This document shows, in pieces, positions 7,459 to 19,116 of a stretch of 24,000 bases of DNA. The notes beneath the pieces are model-generated. The model saw only the letters and a program-made list of their open reading frames with translations, made no database searches and was not told the DNA's origin. Within the stretch, counting starts at the first letter, position 1. Each line of letters opens with the position of its first letter. The translations under genes and the position numbers were made by a program. The DNA comes from Candidatus Copromorpha sp. (GTDB lineage: Bacteria; Bacillota; Clostridia; Peptostreptococcales; Anaerovoracaceae), in NCBI GenBank assembly GCA_040768865.1, contig JAXGMD010000001.1:1225117-1249116 (forward strand), given 5' to 3'.

Positions 7459-7478
7459 AGTAAAACAGGAGGGTGTTT

Positions 7479-8921
7479 ATGTATCTGGAAGAAATAATTG
7501 GTGATGTACAATTGGAGAGCAGCAAGTTTGAGAGTAAAGAAATTTTGAATCGTGATAATGTTGTAGGATGGCTTAAAACAGTTGCGGGATTTGCCAATGC
7601 ATCGGGTGGTGAATTATATTTGGGCGTTAAGGATAAGACAAATAAATTGGTTGGCTTTGATAGACGAGATGCTGACAATGAACGCAATTACTTCAATAAT
7701 CAAGTAAATGAACATCTGACTCCAAGACCTCAAATGGATATTTCGTTTTTACCATACAAAGTTAGGGATAATGAGCGGTTCATCATAAAAATCAGTATTC
7801 CGGAATCAGTGGTTAAACCAGTAATTCTGAAATACAAAAGTATACCTTCTATATATATGAGAAGAGATGGCTTTACAAATGGAGCTACATATGAAGAAAT
7901 TGTTGAAATGAGTATTAAGAGCAAGAATACACAATATGATATTTTGGTTTCTGATGCTAAATATGAAAAAAGTAAGATATCCAAACTCCATTCATTTTAT
8001 AAAGAACATAATTATGGTGAAGAATTAAAGGAGAAATTTTTGCGTTCTATAGGCTTTGTAAACGAAGATGGATATTTACTGAATGGTGCTGTCTTGTTCC
8101 TGGACGATTACGATGGAAAGAAAACTGAAGTACAATGTTCTGTTTTTTCTGGCTTTAATAAAGGGAGTGAAAGAATAGTAACAGTTAATCGTTTTAATGG
8201 GAATATTATCGAAACAATTGAGTACATCATGGGATTTGTGAACCAGAGAATGAATCGTTCAATGATTAAAAAAATGGATAAAAGAATAAACATCGATGCA
8301 TATCCACAGCGTGCTCTATTTGAAGGTGTGATAAATGCGGTTGCACATAGAGATTATTATTTAGATGGAACCCAGATTCAGGTTGATATGTATAAGGACA
8401 GACTCGAAATTTCTTCGCCCGGTGGATTTTATAGAGGTGAAAGATTCGGTAAAACATATGATTTGTCAGGAGTTATTTCGAAACGAAGAAATGAATTAAT
8501 TTCAAATGTGCTTGTAGGGTGTAATGTTATGGAAGCCGCAGGTACCGGTTTTGATAAGATAATGGAGGAGTACGCAGAAGCAGATCAACCTCACAAACCG
8601 TATATTTATTCTTCATCGGATCATTTCACTTTGGTACTTCCGGATTTGACATACGAAAATGGCGTTAAAGATGAGCGATTAGCAGCCATTTCTTTTGTGC
8701 CTGCTTCAAATAGTACAGAACATGATGAGAAAGTTTTGGCGTTTTGCTATCATCAAGCACACAAAGCGTCAGAAATAGCACAATTCCTCGGTCTTAAAGA
8801 TTCTACATATTTTAGAAACAAAGTGTTAAATAATCTTGTGGAACAGGAGTATTTGTTGAAAAGTAAAGGATTAAGAGCATGGTATTATAGGACAAACTCC
8901 GATTCAGTACAACAACAATGA
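7479..8921 (+). CDS. AlbA_2 (Schlafen-like) + HATPase_c_4 + C-terminal wHTH protein, the family usually annotated as a putative ATP-dependent DNA-binding regulator
   Basis: The N-terminal ESSKFESKE...VVGWLKTVAGFANASGGELYLGVKD is the AlbA_2 signature. RALFEGVINAVAHRDYYLDGTQIQVDMYKDRLEISSPGG is the HATPase_c_4 signature. The C-terminal ASEIAQFLGLKDSTYFRNKVLNNLVEQEYL is wHTH-like. ATG 7479 lies 6 nt after the AGGAGGG RBS. The track start at 7473 is a GTG inside that RBS. Confidence 0.85.
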   Translation: MYLEEIIGDVQLESSKFESKEILNRDNVVGWLKTVAGFANASGGELYLGVKDKTNKLVGFDRRDADNERNYFNNQVNEHLTPRPQMDISFLPYKVRDNERFIIKISIPESVVKPVILKYKSIPSIYMRRDGFTNGATYEEIVEMSIKSKNTQYDILVSDAKYEKSKISKLHSFYKEHNYGEELKEKFLRSIGFVNEDGYLLNGAVLFLDDYDGKKTEVQCSVFSGFNKGSERIVTVNRFNGNIIETIEYIMGFVNQRMNRSMIKKMDKRINIDAYPQRALFEGVINAVAHRDYYLDGTQIQVDMYKDRLEISSPGGFYRGERFGKTYDLSGVISKRRNELISNVLVGCNVMEAAGTGFDKIMEEYAEADQPHKPYIYSSSDHFTLVLPDLTYENGVKDERLAAISFVPASNSTEHDEKVLAFCYHQAHKASEIAQFLGLKDSTYFRNKVLNNLVEQEYLLKSKGLRAWYYRTNSDSVQQQ

Positions 8922-12099: not shown

Positions 12100-12255
12100 G
12101 TGAAAAATGTTATAATACCTATCAAAGCAATATATCAAGATGGAGAACTGGAAGATAGTTCAACTGCAAACTATAAGCTGACAGTTCAAAAAGAGGGAAC
12201 AATAGAGATTAACAGGCAAATTGTCTACTATTCTTTAGATAGCAGATATAACTAA
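12100..12255 (+). pseudogene. Possible RhuM-family (virulence protein RhuM-like) gene fragment
   Basis: A 51-codon open frame reads ...IYQDGELEDSSTANYKLTVQKEGTIEINRQIVYYSLDSRYN*. It resembles, from memory, the central RhuM motif (..I[FY].EGEL.......K........G......V.YYNLD.IISVGYRV) but stops before the SVGYRV block. There is no RBS or proper start. Confidence 0.35.
12108..12116 (+). promoter_or_regulatory. Extended -10 promoter candidate for the methyltransferase operon
   Basis: TGtTATAAT lies at 12108-12116. There is no good -35, and an extended -10 can compensate for that. It is the only strong promoter-like element between the hipA stop and 12273. Confidence 0.4.
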
Positions 12256-12272
12256 AAAACGGAAGGACCATC

Positions 12273-12434
12273 ATGGATAATATAATTGATATTTTGAACG
12301 ACGACAAAGACTTGCAAGCATTAAAAAAGCAGTATGAAGAAAAATACATGAAAAATGCACCACCCTTTAATACTGATGAATATAACGGTATTGATGATTA
12401 CAAAGAACAATTAAAGAAATTAGTGGAAGGCTAA
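12273..12434 (+). CDS. Small acidic hypothetical protein (53 aa), below the track's length cutoff
   Basis: A GGAAGGA RBS (12261-12267) lies 5 nt before the ATG. The protein is MDNIIDILNDDKDLQALKKQYEEKYMKNAPPFNTDEYNGIDDYKEQLKKLVEG*. Its 3' end carries the GGAAGG RBS for the next gene, and its stop is 5 nt before TTG 12440. Confidence 0.45.
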   Translation: MDNIIDILNDDKDLQALKKQYEEKYMKNAPPFNTDEYNGIDDYKEQLKKLVEG

Positions 12435-12439
12435 GCAGT

Positions 12440-14410
12440 TTGATTATAAACATTCAAGACGATATTTTAAAACTTAATAGTATAAAAATTCTTGATAAGC
12501 TTTTGGTTGATAAAACAACGCGAAAAAACATCATGTGGGCTACGGATGCTTATGACGATGCAGGGGAATTGTATGAAAGAAATAAAGAGATAACAATTCA
12601 AGCTGTTACAGGACATAATGCCGGAGTTATCAAAACACGAGCAAGAAAGGCGTTAGAGAGTCAGGAAAAGAGAACGCGACAACATGCGGAGATTTTCACG
12701 CCACTATGGCTTTGCAATTTGATGAATAATCAAACTGATGAAGAATGGTTCGGGAGAAAAGAAGTTTTCAACAAGGATGGAGAGCCAACGGAAAAAGTAA
12801 AATTCCCGGAAGGGAAAACCTGGCAAAAATACATTAAATCAAGGCGGATGGAAATAACTTGTGGAGAGGCTCCTTTTCTCGTTAGCAGATATGATGTTGA
12901 AACAGGCGAAATGATACCTGTTAGTAAACGAATAGGAATACTCGATCGCAAATTGCGGACTGTTAGCGAAAACACCGAAACTGAAGCTGAGTGGATGAAA
13001 TGGACTATAAGAGCTTTTCAAGCGACATATGGCTATGAGTTTCAGGGAGACAATGTCCTTATTGCACGGGTAAATATGCTTATGACATTTGAGGAACACT
13101 TAGAGGATAGATGGGGTAGAAAGCCATCCTACAGGGAATACGAAAAGTTTGCAAATATCATTGCTTGGAACATCTGGCAAATGGATGGTCTAACCGGGAC
13201 AGTTCCGTATTGCAAGGCTAAAGAGGAAGATTTACAGACAAATATGTTCGATAAGATAGGCATGAACTTTGAACCAGAGGAAGAGGATGTACAGCCGCCG
13301 TGCAGGATATATGACTGGTTAGGCAAAAACAGAAGTATAGAATTTATATCGCTTAGGAACAAGAGGGAAAAAATGAAATTTGATTTTATTATCGGGAATC
13401 CACCGTATCAAGAAGAGCAGGAAGGGGACAATAAAACATTTGCTCCGCCTATTTATCACAAGTTTTTGGAAGAAGCATATAAACTATCTGATTGTGTTGA
13501 AATGGTTCATCCTGCCAGATTTTTATTCAATGCGGGAAGTACTCCAAAGGAATGGAACCGCAAGATACTATCAGATCCACATTTAAAGGTGCTGTTTTAT
13601 GAACAAGATAGCAGTAAAGTTTTCCTAAATACTGATATTAAAGGTGGGGTAGCGATAACATATCGGGATAAAAAGCATAAGAATAAACCAATAGGAACTT
13701 TTACAGCGTTTGAAGAATTAAACTCACTATTAAATAAGGTTTATGGAAGTGACGGTTTTGACAGCTTTAGTAAGATTGTGTTTACACGCACAGCATATCG
13801 TTTGACAGATATCATGCATAACGAACATCCTGAAGCATTAAGCCAATTAAGTAAGGGACATGCGTATGATATGTCTACAAATATATTCGAATTGCTGCCT
13901 CAAATTTTTTATGATGAGAAGCCAGATGATGAGACTTATAGTTATATTAAAATTTTGGGACGGGAAAACAATCAGAGAACTTACAAATGGATTCGAAGAG
14001 ATTATGTAAATGATGTTACCAATTTAGAAAAATGGAAAATTATTTTACCAAAATCTAATGGTTCCGGTGCACTTGGGGAGGTATTAACAACACCCCTAAT
14101 CGGGGAACCCCTAATCGGGTCAACAGAATCCTTTATAAGCATTGGTGATTTTGAAACAGAAGAAGAGGTAGTTGCATGTTTGAAATATGTTAAATCGAAG
14201 TTTGCGAGATGCATGTTAGGCATACTTAAGGTTACACAGGACAATCCACCGGAAAAGTGGAAATATATCCCAATGCAGGACTTCACAGAGACTTCTGATA
14301 TTGACTGGTCAAAGTCAATATCAGAAGTTGACGAGCAAATATATAAGAAATATGGGCTAAGCAATCAAGAAATAGAGTTTATTGAATCGCATGTCAAGGA
14401 GATGGAATAA
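12440..14410 (+). CDS. Eco57I-like gamma-class N6-adenine DNA methyltransferase with a C-terminal target-recognition-like domain (656 aa)
   Basis: Motif X-like AEIFTPLWLCNLMNN comes first. Motif I-like RMEITCGEAPFL follows, then motif IV FDFIIGNPPYQ (NPPY at 13397-13408). The C-terminal ...KSKFARCMLGILKVTQ...IDEQIYKKYGLSNQEIEFIESHVKEM is typical of Eco57I/TaqI-type TRD tails. The TTG start is 9 nt after GGAAGG. The alternative ATG (MWATDAY) would remove 31 aa. Confidence 0.88.
   Translation: MIINIQDDILKLNSIKILDKLLVDKTTRKNIMWATDAYDDAGELYERNKEITIQAVTGHNAGVIKTRARKALESQEKRTRQHAEIFTPLWLCNLMNNQTDEEWFGRKEVFNKDGEPTEKVKFPEGKTWQKYIKSRRMEITCGEAPFLVSRYDVETGEMIPVSKRIGILDRKLRTVSENTETEAEWMKWTIRAFQATYGYEFQGDNVLIARVNMLMTFEEHLEDRWGRKPSYREYEKFANIIAWNIWQMDGLTGTVPYCKAKEEDLQTNMFDKIGMNFEPEEEDVQPPCRIYDWLGKNRSIEFISLRNKREKMKFDFIIGNPPYQEEQEGDNKTFAPPIYHKFLEEAYKLSDCVEMVHPARFLFNAGSTPKEWNRKILSDPHLKVLFYEQDSSKVFLNTDIKGGVAITYRDKKHKNKPIGTFTAFEELNSLLNKVYGSDGFDSFSKIVFTRTAYRLTDIMHNEHPEALSQLSKGHAYDMSTNIFELLPQIFYDEKPDDETYSYIKILGRENNQRTYKWIRRDYVNDVTNLEKWKIILPKSNGSGALGEVLTTPLIGEPLIGSTESFISIGDFETEEEVVACLKYVKSKFARCMLGILKVTQDNPPEKWKYIPMQDFTETSDIDWSKSISEVDEQIYKKYGLSNQEIEFIESHVKEME
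14093..14122 (+). repeat. In-frame 15-bp tandem duplication inside the methyltransferase TRD
   Basis: The sequence reads CCCCTAATCGGGgaa CCCCTAATCGGGtca, encoding PLIGE-PLIGS. Confidence 0.85.
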
Positions 14411-17400
14411 TGGCTACACCGAAGATTAAGTCTTTTACCTCTGTGGTTCCTATGATTTATGCCTATAATACTCCCGGGGTTTTGTACCATGAAGGATGGA
14501 CGAAAATAGGGTATACAGAAAAACAATCGGTTGCAGATCGCATCAAGCAACAGACGCACACTGCAGGAATAAAGCCGGTGATTGCATGGCAGGATAACGC
14601 AATATATAAAGACGGATCCGGCGAGTATTTCACTGATTATGAATTTCACGGCTATCTGGAAATTGAGAAAGAGGTGGAACGTGAAAAAGGAACTGAATGG
14701 TTCAAAATTGATGGTGCTAATTCAAAACAATATTTTGATTGCTTTGCAAGTCGTAGCTTTGATGAGATCCCGGAAGAAGAAAGATATTCATACACATTGC
14801 GCGATGAGCAGGCTGAAGCCGTTGCTATGACAAAAGAGTACTTTGAAAATGGTGGCGAGGAGTTTCTTTGGAATGCTAAACCGCGTTTTGGAAAGACTTT
14901 AACATCATATGATTTGATTAGAGAGATGGGATTTAAAAAGGTACTTATCGTTACTAACAGACCCAGCATCTCGAATTCATGGGCGGATGATTTTCACAAA
15001 TTCATAGGATGGAGAGGCGAACTTGCATTTGTATCTGAAACTGACGCGCTGAAAGACAAAAGAGGTGTTTTGAGTCGTGAAGAATATGTAAATCGTACCG
15101 TAGCCCTAGATTCCGAAAAAGCTCCGGGTATGGTTGCATTTGAATCTCTGCAAGGGCTTAAGGGATCCGTATATTTCGGGGGACAAATTGATAAGCTGGA
15201 ATGGATTCATGGAATCAATGATGGATTTGATCTTTTGATTATTGATGAGGCGCAAGAAGGCGTTGACACTATGCGTACAGAACGCGCCTTTAAATCCATA
15301 AAGAGGAAGCATACGCTTTATCTTTCAGGAACCCCGTTTAAAGCCCTTGCCAGTGAGCAGTTTTCTAAAGAACAGATTTTTAACTGGTCCTATGCTGATG
15401 AGCAAGAGACAAAAGCAACATGGAAGAACGAAGATTACAATCCATATGAAATACTTCCGCGACTGGAAATGTATACATATCAACTTTCTGCAATGATTAG
15501 GGAGGAGATAGAGAAAGGGATAGACCTTTCAGAAGATGGTAGTACAGACTATGCATTTGATTTGAACGAGTTCTTTTCAACTAATGAGAGCGGTAAGTTT
15601 ATATATGAGGAAGATGTCAAGAAATTTCTGCATGCACTTTGCTCTCAAGAAAAATATCCGTATTCTACACCGGAATTGCGGCAAGAGTTGTCACATACTC
15701 TTTGGTTATTAAATCGTGTAGCCAGTGCAAAAGCATTAGCCAAATTGTTAAAAGATGATCCGGTCTTCAGGGAATATGAGGTTGTTCTTGCAGCCGGTGA
15801 TGGTCGTCTAGATGATAATGAAGCGACAGAAGCATCATTTGATAAAGTTAAAGAGGCCATAGCAAATAATGAAAAGACAATTACTCTCAGCGTCGGCCAG
15901 CTGACAGTTGGAGTTACCATACCTGAATGGAGTGGTGTTTTGATGCTATGCAATCTGAAGAGCCCATCATCGTACATGCAGGCAGCTTTTCGTGCACAAA
16001 ACCCGTGTATTGTTACTAAAGATGGAAAAAGATATCGCAAGGAAACCGCATATGTATTTGATTTCGACCCGGCGAGAACACTTATCATCTTCGATGAATT
16101 TGCAAACAATCTGTCAAAAGACACAGTGGATGGTCGAGGAACAAAAGGTGATAGAGAGCAAAACATTCGTAGATTATTGAATTTCTTCCCTGTTCTTGGA
16201 GAAGATGATGAGGGAACAATGATTGAACTGGATGCAGCTCAGGTTCTTTCAATTCCAAGACGAATTAAGAGCCAAGAGGTTGTGCGACGTGGATTTATGT
16301 CAAACTTCCTATTCCAGAATATCAGCAATGTATTTGGAGCTCCTGCAGTTGTTCGTGAAATTGTGGAGAAGCTTACACCTGCACATGAAGAAACGAAAAG
16401 GACAGATAAAGAAAAGCTGAAGGACCTAGAAGGTGTTTCTGTAAATGAAGATGGGGAAGTTGAGATTCCGGTGGAAATAGTAATTGGTAAGACCCGAGAG
16501 CTTTTTGGCGAAAAAATATATGAGACTCTCGAATCTGACTTGAATGGAACGCTGAATGGTATTAACAAGAATTCCGAATTTGAGGGGATTGAGAGCGGTA
16601 TAGAGGAAGTCATAGAGACGGTAAAGAATAGCCTTAAGGGAAGTGTTATAAAACCGGCATCCGATGAGTACGATCTCAAATCACGTACTCAGCAGAGGAT
16701 TGAAAAACAGCTAGACAGAGAGATTGAAACTACCTTTATGAAAATAAAGGATGACTATAAGCAACAGGCATCCATAGCAAAGGCAGAGCTCGAACGAAAA
16801 CGGAAAGAGGCGGAATCAGAGCAGGATGTTAAACAAGCCGATGCAGAGTATGAGATGTGTATGGATGATGCCATGAAAGGGCTTATGGAGGCTGCAAAAG
16901 AAACAATAAAGAAGACCATTGATGAAAAACCAAAAGAAGTTATTGAGAAAATAGAAAAGATTCGTGCGGAAGCGGAGAAGAAAACAATAGAGGATACCAT
17001 ACGAGATCACCTTAGAGGTTTTTCAAGAACTATTCCTAGCTTCATCATGGCTTATGGAGATGGAAATATCACCTTAGCGAACTTTGATGAATATACAGAG
17101 GATGATGTTTTTCAAGCGGTTACCGGCATTTCTGAAGAAGATTTCAGATTTTTAAGAGACGGTGGCAATTATGAGAATCCGGAAACAGGTGAGACAGAGT
17201 ACTTTGATGGAAAACTATTTGATGAAGTTGTGTTTAACGATTCAGTTGAAGAGTTCTGGAACAAGAAAATCTCATTAGCTGACTATTTTGACGAAACGCA
17301 TGAAGAAGATATTTTTGATTATATTCCGCCACAGAAAACTAACCAAATATTTACGCCAAGATGGGTAGTTGCTACAATGGTAGATCAATTGGAAGAGAAC

Positions 17401-17733
17401 AATCCCGGCTGTTTTGATGATCCAACAAATACCTTTGCCGACCTGTATATGAAGTCCGGTCTTTATATTACAGAGATTGTAAAGCGGCTATATAGAAGCG
17501 ATGAAATTAAGAAGGTCTATCCTGATAACGAGGAAAGGATTCGTCATATTCTTAGGAATCAGGTGTATGGCATGGCTCCAACCAGAATCATTTATCTGAT
17601 TGCGACTAATTATATTCTGGGATTTGATGAAAGCTTGAAAGATGAGGTAATGAACTTTATTCAATGTGATGCTGCTGAAGCATCGAAAAATGGGAAGCTG
17701 GGGGAAATGGTGGATAAGTTTTTTGATATTTAG
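14410..17733 (+). CDS. Multidomain protein (1107 aa): N-terminal T5orf172/GIY-YIG-like domain, SF2 (ResIII/DEAD-like) helicase, Glu/Lys coiled-coil, and a C-terminal degenerate methyltransferase-like region
   Basis: The ATG overlaps the upstream stop (TAATG, 14408-14412), and an AAGGAG RBS lies 9 nt upstream. Residues 15-100 (IYAYNTPG...TKIGYTEKQSVADRIKQQ...YEFHGYL...GTEWFKI) fit the T5orf172 pattern. Walker A is PRFGKT (GKT at 14890-14898). The DEAQ box is LLIIDEAQEG (15244-15255). Motif III is LYLSGTPF and motif VI-like is MQAAFRAQNP. Residues ~655-875 are E/K-rich. Residues 980 onward read IFTPRWVVATMVDQL...FADLYMKSGLYITEI...VYGMAPTRIIYLIATNYIL, which resembles methyltransferase motifs X and I, but no NPPY follows. 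Confidence 0.88.
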   Translation: MATPKIKSFTSVVPMIYAYNTPGVLYHEGWTKIGYTEKQSVADRIKQQTHTAGIKPVIAWQDNAIYKDGSGEYFTDYEFHGYLEIEKEVEREKGTEWFKIDGANSKQYFDCFASRSFDEIPEEERYSYTLRDEQAEAVAMTKEYFENGGEEFLWNAKPRFGKTLTSYDLIREMGFKKVLIVTNRPSISNSWADDFHKFIGWRGELAFVSETDALKDKRGVLSREEYVNRTVALDSEKAPGMVAFESLQGLKGSVYFGGQIDKLEWIHGINDGFDLLIIDEAQEGVDTMRTERAFKSIKRKHTLYLSGTPFKALASEQFSKEQIFNWSYADEQETKATWKNEDYNPYEILPRLEMYTYQLSAMIREEIEKGIDLSEDGSTDYAFDLNEFFSTNESGKFIYEEDVKKFLHALCSQEKYPYSTPELRQELSHTLWLLNRVASAKALAKLLKDDPVFREYEVVLAAGDGRLDDNEATEASFDKVKEAIANNEKTITLSVGQLTVGVTIPEWSGVLMLCNLKSPSSYMQAAFRAQNPCIVTKDGKRYRKETAYVFDFDPARTLIIFDEFANNLSKDTVDGRGTKGDREQNIRRLLNFFPVLGEDDEGTMIELDAAQVLSIPRRIKSQEVVRRGFMSNFLFQNISNVFGAPAVVREIVEKLTPAHEETKRTDKEKLKDLEGVSVNEDGEVEIPVEIVIGKTRELFGEKIYETLESDLNGTLNGINKNSEFEGIESGIEEVIETVKNSLKGSVIKPASDEYDLKSRTQQRIEKQLDREIETTFMKIKDDYKQQASIAKAELERKRKEAESEQDVKQADAEYEMCMDDAMKGLMEAAKETIKKTIDEKPKEVIEKIEKIRAEAEKKTIEDTIRDHLRGFSRTIPSFIMAYGDGNITLANFDEYTEDDVFQAVTGISEEDFRFLRDGGNYENPETGETEYFDGKLFDEVVFNDSVEEFWNKKISLADYFDETHEEDIFDYIPPQKTNQIFTPRWVVATMVDQLEENNPGCFDDPTNTFADLYMKSGLYITEIVKRLYRSDEIKKVYPDNEERIRHILRNQVYGMAPTRIIYLIATNYILGFDESLKDEVMNFIQCDAAEASKNGKLGEMVDKFFDI

Positions 17734-17747
17734 GACACTGGAGCAAG

Positions 17748-18770
17748 GTGATAAAAATAATGAAAAATGAAAGTACATCAACTAATCATAGACAAGACAA
17801 CTATGTAGATAATCGCATCTGCAACAAAAGCAGTAAAGATGCATTGTTAGGTTTGGCCGTTGCCGATGCATTAGGAGTTCCTGTGGAATTTTCAATAAGA
17901 AAAAGGCTGCAGCAAAATCCGGTTGTTGGAATGCGAGGTTTTGGATCTCATGATGTACCGGCAGGAACATGGTCAGATGACACATCCATGACTATTGCCA
18001 CCATGCAGGCAGTTGCGGATAAAGGTCAAATAGACTATGACGAAATAATGAACAATTTCAGTAAATGGCTCAATGAGGGTGAGTTTACCACCGATGGCAA
18101 AGTATTTGATGTTGGTGGTACATGCCTTCGTGCAGTCATGAAATGGTGCCGAGGTGGTTGCGAGCCAATAGATGCAGGAATGAAAGGTGAACGCAATAAC
18201 GGCAACGGATCTTTGATGCGGTTTTTGCCGGTTCCATTCTATTGTTACTCTAAAGGAATACAAGGCAATGATCTAGTAAAAATCTGCAATGAGATCTCAT
18301 CTCTTACCCACAGTCATGAAATAAGTCGTTTGGGATGCTATATTTACACAATTTTTATGATGGAACTTTTGAGAGGTCATAATCTAAGAGAGGCATATGA
18401 GAATATGCAGAAGGCAGACTATAGCGCTTATTCTGCAGAGAGCATTGGAATATATTCCAGGATATTGAATAATGATATTTCTGTTTTGGCAGAAGAGTCA
18501 ATTGAGTCGGATGGATATGTTGTTTACACATTGGAAGCAGCGCTCTGGTGCCTCCTGAACGGAAAAGATTACAAAAGCACAGCCTTAATGGCAGTAAATC
18601 TTGGTCGAGATACAGATACAGTAGCAGCTGTTGCCGGCTCCATGGCGGGCATTGTCTATGGAAAAGAAAGTATACCGACTGAATGGCTGGAAGTTTTGCT
18701 TAGGAGAGAGTACTTGGAAAATCTTTCAGAAAGATTTGATTGTGCATTAATTCGTACAATTATAGATTAG
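17748..18770 (+). CDS. ADP-ribosylglycohydrolase family protein (DraG/ARH-like)
   Basis: Motifs present are LLGLAVADALGVPVEF, GTWSDDTSMT, NGNGSLMR, THSH, DGYVVYTLEAALWCL and GRDTDTVAAVAGSMAGIVYG (the metal-binding Asp/Thr clusters). The gene starts 14 nt after the helicase stop. The start is ambiguous between GTG 17748 and ATG 17760. Confidence 0.88.
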   Translation: MIKIMKNESTSTNHRQDNYVDNRICNKSSKDALLGLAVADALGVPVEFSIRKRLQQNPVVGMRGFGSHDVPAGTWSDDTSMTIATMQAVADKGQIDYDEIMNNFSKWLNEGEFTTDGKVFDVGGTCLRAVMKWCRGGCEPIDAGMKGERNNGNGSLMRFLPVPFYCYSKGIQGNDLVKICNEISSLTHSHEISRLGCYIYTIFMMELLRGHNLREAYENMQKADYSAYSAESIGIYSRILNNDISVLAEESIESDGYVVYTLEAALWCLLNGKDYKSTALMAVNLGRDTDTVAAVAGSMAGIVYGKESIPTEWLEVLLRREYLENLSERFDCALIRTIID

Positions 18771-18828: not shown

Positions 18829-18918
18829 CTATTTGTGGTAACGACTCAGCCACTTGCAGATATAGTTGGCAATTATACCTGCTACAGTCGAAACTAAAAG
18901 CGCACATAGAATATTCAT
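18829..18918 (-). CDS. Type I toxin candidate: a 29-aa hydrophobic peptide (Fst/Ldr/PepA1-like)
   Basis: It is not in the ORF track because it is too short. The minus strand reads GGAAAGGAGGTGctatATG and then MNILCALLVSTVAGIIANYICKWLSRYHK*, a single TM helix with a basic tail. It resembles S. aureus PepA1 (...SGCAIAFFSYWLSRRNTK) as I recall it. A perfect consensus promoter lies upstream. Confidence 0.65.
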   Translation of the reverse strand: MNILCALLVSTVAGIIANYICKWLSRYHK

Positions 18919-18964: not shown

Positions 18965-18993
18965 ATTATAGTGTAAATGGAAATATTTGTCAA
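18965..18993 (-). promoter_or_regulatory. Consensus sigma-A promoter for the toxin mRNA
   Basis: On the minus strand, TTGACA (18993-18988) is followed by a 17-bp spacer and TATAAT (18970-18965). Both hexamers are perfect. The ~40-nt 5' UTR contains the hairpin GTTGC...GCAAC, and its loop ATCTCC could sequester the SD. Confidence 0.7.
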
Positions 18994-19010: not shown

Positions 19011-19038
19011 TTGACTAAATTTATTATGGTGTTATAAT
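19011..19038 (+). promoter_or_regulatory. Promoter for the divergent small RNA
   Basis: The -35 is TTGACT (19011-19016), followed by a 16-bp spacer and an extended -10 TGtTATAAT (19030-19038). It sits back-to-back with the toxin promoter. Confidence 0.6.
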
Positions 19039-19044
19039 GAATAT

Positions 19045-19116
19045 AGGCAAAGCGTACATAGAAACATATGGCACACGAAAACTTCGGAATGGTGGTTCCG
19101 GGGTTTTCTTTTTTGT
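19045..19116 (+). ncRNA. Candidate type I antitoxin sRNA (~65-70 nt), bounded by a promoter and a terminator
   Basis: It starts ~7 nt after the -10 and ends at the intrinsic terminator at 19082-19116. Positions 19049-19062 (AAAGCGTACATAGA) are complementary to toxin codons 3-7, forming a 14-bp duplex with one U.G pair. CATAT at 19065-19069 is complementary to the AUG region. Confidence 0.5.
19082..19116 (+). terminator. Intrinsic terminator
   Basis: CTTCGGAA (19082-19089) pairs with TTCCGGGG (19096-19103), including two G.U pairs. The T-rich tract TTTTCTTTTTTGTTTCTTTT follows. Confidence 0.65.

Follow-up and report, generated by a model that had tools for sequence, protein, structure and literature searches.

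Four genes lie close together on one strand of a 24,000-nucleotide stretch of DNA from Candidatus Copromorpha sp. (contig JAXGMD010000001.1; the whole stretch is called the window here), and the question that they raise is which of them work together, and as what kind of system. They encode a 53-amino-acid (aa) acidic protein (12273..12434, + strand), a gamma-class N6-adenine DNA methylase of 656 aa with a TTG start (12440..14410, +), a 1107-aa putative nuclease-translocase (14410..17733, +; hereafter the helicase) in which a T5orf172 domain and a superfamily 2 (SF2) helicase are followed by long helices and half of a methylase, and an ADP-ribosylglycohydrolase (ARH; 17760..18770, +). The initial annotation, made from the sequence alone, took all four for a single non-canonical defence system that fits none of the restriction-modification (R-M) classes. 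We conclude instead that the functional unit is probably the methylase together with the nuclease-helicase, which would be a two-gene relative of the single-chain Type ISP enzymes with a nuclease of the GIY-YIG type.

The conserved unit was defined by tblastn comparison with 88 related loci of several phyla, 87 from other organisms and one (L009) from an independent assembly of the same organism. A methylase homolog stood immediately upstream of the helicase in every related locus with enough upstream sequence. The methylase has two halves, N′ (residues 1–311, with motifs X, I and II/III) and C (residues 312–656, with NPPY, a variable recognition region and a conserved tail), and in most of the 72 loci that carry both, the distance from the methylase stop to the helicase start was −4 to +1. 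The two genes are thus conserved as an adjacent, translationally coupled pair, which bears out the part of the initial annotation that saw in them a coupled, ATP-dependent R-M-like module. The helicase family is widespread: it has more than 8000 database matches (the best 120 all at least 69% identical), 2946 clusters at 50% identity match the helicase, and at least 580 GTDB species-representative genomes carry a relative. The taxa among the matches listed include Bacillota, Bacteroidota (Prevotella), Actinomycetota (Eggerthellaceae), Planctomycetota, Spirochaetota, an alphaproteobacterium and Gastranaerophilales. By contrast, tblastn found neither the ARH nor the 53-aa open reading frame (ORF) in any of the 87 loci of other organisms; L009 alone has them, in the same four-gene layout. 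Clustering of the flanking ORFs of the related loci revealed no gene conserved by position on either side of the pair, and the same ORFs included no small ORF conserved in front of the methylase elsewhere. Only two kinds of flanking gene recurred: GmrSD, directly 3′ of the helicase in six loci, and a gene for a 202-aa serine resolvase/invertase, which 10 of 60 loci (L001–L003, L005, L018, L020, L067, L073, L075 and L085) have about 190 nt in front of the methylase and which may be part of the mobile element carrying the pair, or an invertase. The tblastn and clustering results led us to reject the ARH and the 53-aa ORF as conserved partners: among the neighbours proposed for the helicase, the methylase co-occurs with it but the ARH and the small ORF do not, and the four-gene system as first proposed does not hold.

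The 53-aa protein formed a singleton protein cluster and had no Pfam, PADLOC or NCBIfam match. The ARH is a full-length match to its family (ADP_ribosyl_GH, PF03747, E 2.7e-71, positions 2–287 of 287) and scored below the NCBIfam equivalog cutoffs for Tri1 and DraG. Its homologs were located beside a sigma factor, in another defence island (NERD, Mrr, AIPR) and with the relaxase and type IV secretion system (T4SS) genes of a conjugative element, and never beside a T5orf172-helicase in the places examined. Many close homologs are about 578 aa long, with ADP_ribosyl_GH (about 290 positions) as their sole recorded domain and about half of the chain unannotated (P0272–P0275 and others); one of these, in a conjugative element (L093), is flanked by an SRA-domain protein on one side and by genes for T4SS coupling on the other. 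Foreign genes also occur inside the operon elsewhere, where GmrSD, an MNT-HEPN pair with a YaaC-like protein, and IS256 on a Bifidobacterium plasmid lie between the N′ and C halves (L039:4972–6951, L060:1510–3347, L063:5357–6937 and L100:2654–3838). From these arrangements the methylase-helicase operon seems to be a landing pad for other defence genes, and because unrelated defence genes have been inserted in it elsewhere, the ARH looks like another variable passenger. Judged by this comparison, the ARH and the 53-aa ORF are lineage-specific additions that resemble the GmrSD, MNT-HEPN and YaaC insertions, and are not conserved members of the system, even though the ARH is probably co-transcribed with the pair. 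Here, as in the GmrSD, MNT-HEPN and YaaC loci, tight packing within a defence island does not amount to system membership.

The N-terminus of the helicase carries a putative nuclease domain of the T5orf172 type (GIY-YIG superfamily; residues ~10–115, 14437..14754, +). In the N-terminal 124 residues of the window protein, T5orf172 scored 18.2 bits against a cutoff of 20 and MUG113 scored 20.0 against 22.3. Of 25 diverse family members, 14 had a T5orf172 match (best E 3.8e-7), and three fused homologs, P0124, P0166 and P0250, scored above the cutoff of Pfam; the conserved residues of the domain are Y17, K32, G34, R44 and E96. An SF2 ATPase core of the Snf2/ResIII type follows (residues ~125–650, 14782..16359, +; Pfam ResIII, E 3.5e-12), in which Walker A GKT (K162), DEAQ (279–282), SGTP (306–309) and motif VI QAAFRAQN (524–531) are invariant. 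In the window pair all catalytic motifs are intact, from NPPY and the SAM motifs of the methylase to GKT, DEAQ and the T5orf172 residues Y17, R44 and E96, and both reading frames are complete. Neither single sequences nor family profiles yielded a useful relative of either protein in the PDB, so that fold comparison was needed. The AlphaFold2 model of the helicase protein (pLDDT 83.4, pTM 0.75) matched LlaBIII best among PDB structures (4xqk, E 1.1e-12, 1065 aligned columns), followed by Snf2-type translocases and remodellers, ZorD and SauUSI.

The last ~140 residues of the helicase protein (N′′; residues ~966–1107, 17305..17733, +) correspond to motifs X, I and II/III of a gamma-class methylase, because a fused homolog, P0134 (1524 aa), continues at this point as a methylase. 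Residues 2–1169 of P0134 align with helicase residues 5–1105 (45% identity), the N′′ stretch falling on its residues 1039–1169, and its residues 1168–1524 align with methylase residues 301–656 (35% identity). N′′ carries motif X as QIFTP (QIFTPRWVV), motif I as DLYMKSGLY and then QVYGMAP, and the chain stops just before the expected NPPY; in the AlphaFold2 model it forms strands β1–β3 with their helices, after which the chain ends. Residues N978, T982, P983, D1011, Y1013, K1015, S1016 and G1017 are invariant or nearly so, and the mean pairwise identity of N′′ is 0.49, against 0.47–0.48 for the ATPase lobes. Comparison of the helicase C-terminus with the methylase by hhalign aligned 25 columns around motif X only (probability 67%), so that N′ and N′′ are at best distant paralogs, and the assignment of N′′ as a half-fold comes from the alignment to the fused homolog and the secondary structure of the model. 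By these two lines of evidence, the helicase protein ends in half a methylase Rossmann fold, from motif X to motif III.

The methylase itself was assigned by its Pfam match (Eco57I, E 3.5e-20), by PADLOC and by its motifs. Motif X (FTP, residues 86–88) and motif I (E138-x-TCGEAP) precede the catalytic motif IV, NPPY (residues 320–323, 13397..13408, +), which is the gamma-class order that had been read from the sequence at the outset; the N′ half also carries YGYEFQGD. The catalytic motifs, including N320, P321, P322 and Y323, are invariant across the aligned homologs. Two PADLOC 'MTase_II' profiles match the protein, PDLC03390 in the N half and PDLC03375 in the C half. Residues 421–585 (13700..14194, +) are the most variable structured region, with a mean pairwise identity of 0.36 (minimum 0.14) against 0.56–0.60 in the flanks, and are the probable target-recognition domain. 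In several loci the N′ half is 44–51% identical while the C half is only 22–30% identical. The fold matches of the methylase model were PglX/BrxX, LlaBIII/LlaGI, M.BseCI, BpuSI, MmeI, DrdV and M.TaqI.

The pieces of the system are joined differently in different loci. The window arrangement, [N′-C][Nuc-Hel-N′′], was found in 46 of the 72 loci; the remaining 26 have [N′][C][Nuc-Hel-N′′], a few of which look frameshifted or interrupted. In most split loci the N′ ORF ends in ...KEGR followed by the stop codon, and the C ORF begins MKFDFxIGNPPYQ. Pediococcus pRS5 and Enterococcus plasmids carry [N′][Nuc-Hel-N′′-C], and [Nuc-Hel-N′′-C] also exists alone; single-chain homologs are 1350–1560 aa long. 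In two loci (L097:637–1806 and L095:877–1899) an extra stand-alone ORF resembling the methylase C half (389 aa, Eco57I, 33–42% identical to the window C half), preceded by another C-tail fragment, lies about 4 kb upstream of a fused T5orf172-helicase-methylase gene. From their sequence these ORFs might be specificity cassettes kept in reserve; no recombinase turned up in between, and the programmed-inversion literature does not cover the T5orf172-helicase family. The closest relative, whose helicase is 82% identical, is borne on an integrative and conjugative element (ICE; L006–L008:6004–7998); the final 88 residues of its C half align in a different frame, so that this methylase may be frameshifted while the helicase is intact.

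The junction between the two methylase halves also has the features of a translation start. In the window, GAGGG at 13363–13367, which resembles a Shine-Dalgarno (SD) sequence, precedes the Met312 codon (ATG, 13373–13375), giving a candidate internal start at 13363..13375 (+). Met312 is invariant in 30 of 30 aligned single-ORF homologs; the residues preceding it vary, and the DNA there is purine-rich and SD-like. In split homologs the C-half ORF starts exactly at the Met312 point, behind an SD sequence and a stop codon. Pairing of the 15 nt upstream of Met312 with the anti-SD sequence averaged −8.9 kcal/mol, against −2.0 kcal/mol at all other positions; in 23 of 26 genes the site was among the strongest 5% of positions. 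At this junction, fused genes have GGAGGG, a 7-nt spacer and GTG (−11.9 to −12.2 kcal/mol). Copies from Prevotellaceae and other Bacteroidales keep the Met and lack the purine run; SD sequences are seldom used in Bacteroidota, which would agree with this pattern. The presence of an SD-like sequence and a start codon at the beginning of the C half in every SD-using lineage examined suggests that the C half may also be made as a free protein of ~345 aa.

How does such a pair compare with known systems? Type ISP enzymes share with it the order of N-terminal nuclease, SF2 helicase-like ATPase, linker, gamma-class N6-adenine methylase and recognition domain, and an SF2 ATPase with intact motifs (GKT, DEAQ, SGTP and QxxR in the window family); LlaBIII was the best solved-structure match of the helicase, and LlaBIII/LlaGI were among the best fold matches of the methylase. 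The fused layout of P0134 and the LlaBIII match support the earlier description of the pair as a Type ISP enzyme that has been split and reordered. However, the Type ISP nuclease is of the Mrr/PD-(D/E)xK type whereas that of the window is T5orf172; Type ISP enzymes are single polypeptides whereas the window system occupies two genes, cut inside the Rossmann fold between motif III and NPPY; and, unlike Type ISP, the window system has an extra N-terminal methylase half (N′).

DnmA(YeeA)-YeeB-YeeC resembles the window system in having the three functions in one operon with the methylase first, and was predicted to be a helicase-dependent R-M system akin to Type I, with modification of one strand. 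Compared by description, the YeeB helicase and the T5orf172 protein YeeC are separate and YeeC carries the domain at its C-terminus, whereas in the window T5orf172 is at the N-terminus of the helicase. The L. casei plasmid that has been cited in this connection does not carry YeeA, YeeB and YeeC. For DnmA, an identity of 38% with MmeI has been reported. The window methylase resembles MmeI at the fold level only (E 1.5e-6, 10% identity), and a profile of its family (30 members) retrieved no MmeI chain (5HR4) from the PDB at E ≤ 1. Nuclease-free homologs of MmeI with a DEAD helicase and a GIY-YIG protein as neighbours have been described and were proposed to work like Type I systems and to modify one strand (Morgan 2009, PMC2731913), and uncharacterised Type ISP relatives with helicase subunits and GIY-YIG nucleases have been noted (Sisakova 2012, PMC3553950). 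Together with the DnmA work, these reports mean that the concept of helicase-linked GIY-YIG R-M is already published; we found no paper that characterises any member of the T5orf172-helicase family.

The enzymes of Types IIG and IIL (Eco57I family, BpuSI, MmeI) have Pfam Eco57I in common with the window methylase, and the PADLOC profile 'REase_MTase_IIG' (PDLC03626, 1359 positions) matches both window proteins, the helicase at positions 105–623 (E 7.4e-18) and the methylase at positions 965–1359 (E 1.8e-30). The classical members are single chains that lack an ATPase motor and cleave a set distance away from their site, whereas the window system has separate chains and an SF2 ATPase. NCBI labels the relatives as restriction endonucleases or Eco57I methylases. 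In view of the Type IIG profile, these labels and the publication of the concept in 2009, the statement that the locus fits none of the R-M classes was too strong. The narrower exclusions made at the same time all stand. Neither HsdS nor a PD-(D/E)xK HsdR of Type I is encoded by the operon or by any of the neighbouring ORFs that were scanned. Type III has a beta-class Mod and a Res with C-terminal PD-(D/E)xK, whereas the window methylase is gamma-class and T5orf172 is N-terminal, as seen in 14 of the 25 homologs, the ResIII ATPase lobe alone being shared. By fold, the methylase comes nearest to PglX/BrxX of BREX (E 2.3e-8), but PglZ, BrxC, BrxL, DrmA and DrmB had no PADLOC match in the four proteins and no such domains were found by Pfam among neighbouring ORFs. 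Hma, BREX, DISARM, Druantia and Zorya were rejected as assignments, the only PADLOC matches that point towards such systems being weak and partial ones of the helicase (DpdE, LeoBC and ZorA, on coiled-coil and ATPase regions). The window system is therefore outside Type ISP (by its nuclease fold and split chain), the MmeI/DnmA methylase family (by sequence), Types I and III, BREX and DISARM.

A mechanism can be proposed for the pair. By analogy with MmeI, Type ISP enzymes and PglX, the methylase would mark an asymmetric target with N6-methyladenine, probably on one strand. The C half, with NPPY and the recognition region, would also join the N′′ half of the helicase, either as part of the methylase or as the free 345-aa product from the Met312 start, so that the nuclease-translocase would gain the same specificity. 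On unmodified DNA, the Snf2-like SF2 motor would translocate with ATP and the T5orf172 domain would cut. Under such fold complementation, one C half would complete either a free N′, for modification, or a translocase-tethered N′′, for restriction; we offer this part of the scheme tentatively, as a possibility that is more doubtful than the pair itself.

Several observations weigh against the interpretation of the pair as a working R-M system and against parts of its mechanism. Methylation, ATPase activity, cleavage and phage protection by the pair are inferred from sequence. The nuclease activity of T5orf172 is assumed from superfamily membership, and the domain is below the Pfam threshold in the window protein. 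Pairing of N′′ with the C half is suggested by the logic of the gene arrangements and by the model of a monomer. The Met312 signal of the window itself is weaker (−6.3 kcal/mol, rank 0.078), the compared genes are mutually related, so that 23 of 26 do not represent independent observations, and the SD-like run, which lies where two domains meet, could be a remnant of gene fusion and not serve as a start. Finally, DnmA-YeeB-YeeC is inactive as an R-M system in B. subtilis, where it neither restricts transformation nor protects against phage (Nye 2020; Fernandez 2023). Vibrio homologs of DnmA and YeeB, by contrast, are reported to protect against phage (PMC9973331), a precedent in favour of the R-M reading.

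One alternative is that the pair mainly serves mobile elements, through addiction, competition between elements or establishment after transfer. Relatives are present on 85 plasmids, of which 45 were typed as conjugative or mobilisable; plasmids of lactic acid bacteria and enterococci are among the carriers, and the helicase matched 33 plasmid records from Enterococcus. A small mobilisable element with a resolvase, MobA/MobL and a large serine recombinase carries close homologs as cargo, and such homologs are also found among the T4SS genes of an ICE. On the E. faecium plasmid pDY28-optrA (L101, NZ_MW207670.1:47699–52808), the fused form is accompanied by a 248-aa N′ gene, and erm(A) is a few kb away. 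Near-identical DNA was limited to one 100-bp plasmid match, with no phage match, in the plasmid and phage collections. The window pair, however, lies in a chromosomal defence/toxin-antitoxin island, and no transfer genes were found among the neighbouring ORFs scanned around it. We consider service to mobile elements unlikely as the main role; it is compatible with the R-M explanation and, because R-M systems are generally mobile and addictive, is a layer on that explanation rather than an alternative to it.

It is also unlikely that the restriction arm is idle in this host, with an active epigenetic methylase and a helicase-nuclease that is a relic, as for DnmA of B. subtilis. The lack of restriction and phage protection by the DnmA operon in that organism would fit such a state, as would the disrupted or frameshifted methylases of some related loci (L006–L008, L037, L043 and L077). 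Yet the window motifs are intact and both reading frames complete, purifying selection on the helicase family is strong in different phyla and extends to the nuclease and N′′ domains, and the pair travels as cargo on plasmids and mobile elements. That all four genes form one non-canonical defence system, with the ARH or the small protein as effector, regulator or self-immunity component, is very improbable, since their co-directional tight spacing, the absence of a terminator-like site on the + strand before 19077, the coupling of the 53-aa ORF to the methylase and the recurrence of the layout in the independent assembly are set against the absence of both genes from all 87 loci of other organisms, highly variable neighbours, ARH homologs in unrelated contexts, a singleton 53-aa ORF and other unrelated defence genes at equivalent positions elsewhere.

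The preferred reading, a methylase and nuclease-helicase pair with two added genes, concerns function; the layout of the locus was largely as first described. The ORF coordinates confirm four co-directional, tightly packed genes. Direct reading of the sequence gave a 5-nt gap between the 53-aa ORF and the methylase and a 1-nt overlap (TAATG) between the methylase and the helicase, as had been stated, and the ribosome-binding sites (RBSs) of the following genes are embedded in the preceding ones: GGAAGG, the RBS of the methylase, sits in the 3′ end of the 53-aa ORF, and the two are translationally coupled. The gap before the ARH had been given as 14 nt, from a GTG start at 17748 (17748..18770, 340 aa). 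The ATG at 17760 (336 aa), which has an AAGGTGA RBS, is the more likely start on sequence grounds. A separate gene prediction for this DNA starts there too, and 26 nt is therefore the probable gap. An extended −10 element, TGtTATAAT, does exist 5′ of the operon at 12108..12116 (+), but a consensus scan found no acceptable −35 to pair with it, and promoter-like sites in the region were not enriched (24 found against 23.2 expected from shuffles), so that it is only a candidate promoter. No terminator-like site was found on the + strand within 12100–18770, in agreement with the reported absence of an internal terminator; the first hairpin with a T-run in the scan lies 3′ of the operon at 19077..19108 (+). 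A 51-aa ORF at 12100–12255 had no Pfam match and was taken as a chance ORF in the 5′ leader.

A Pfam scan of the neighbouring ORFs found AbiEi/AbiEii, HipBA, Fic, IS110 and a Schlafen/AlbA_2 ATPase, and the dense defence/toxin-antitoxin neighbourhood described earlier is real. The last of these, a 482-aa Schlafen/AlbA_2 + HATPase_c_4 protein encoded at 7473–8921 between RtcB and the AbiE pair, is a candidate defence gene. On the − strand, in convergent orientation to ARH, 18829–18918 encodes a hydrophobic peptide of 29 aa, MNILCALLVSTVAGIIANYICKWLSRYHK, behind a GGAGGTG RBS, with a sigma-70-type promoter that matches perfectly (12/12) at 18993–18965 (− strand); a strong + strand promoter at 19011–19038 faces the peptide gene. 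By its sequence the peptide looks like a type I toxin.

The half methylase borne by the helicase, with an NPPY half that is placed differently from locus to locus, and the conserved internal start appear to be new; we found no paper describing a duplicated N half, a single C half or an internal start in such a system. If fold complementation is true, specificity would be shared between modification and restriction as it is by HsdS in Type I systems, through a Rossmann fold split between β3 and β4, and sharing of a half-domain, if real, would be a new way of coupling the specificities of the two activities. The pair would also widen the Type ISP scheme to include a nuclease of the GIY-YIG type. 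The methylase-helicase module is among the commoner uncharacterised R-M-like modules of gut and rumen bacteria, and its recognition sites and any restriction activity would be of relevance to phage therapy, to genetic access to gut anaerobes and to the spread of plasmids.

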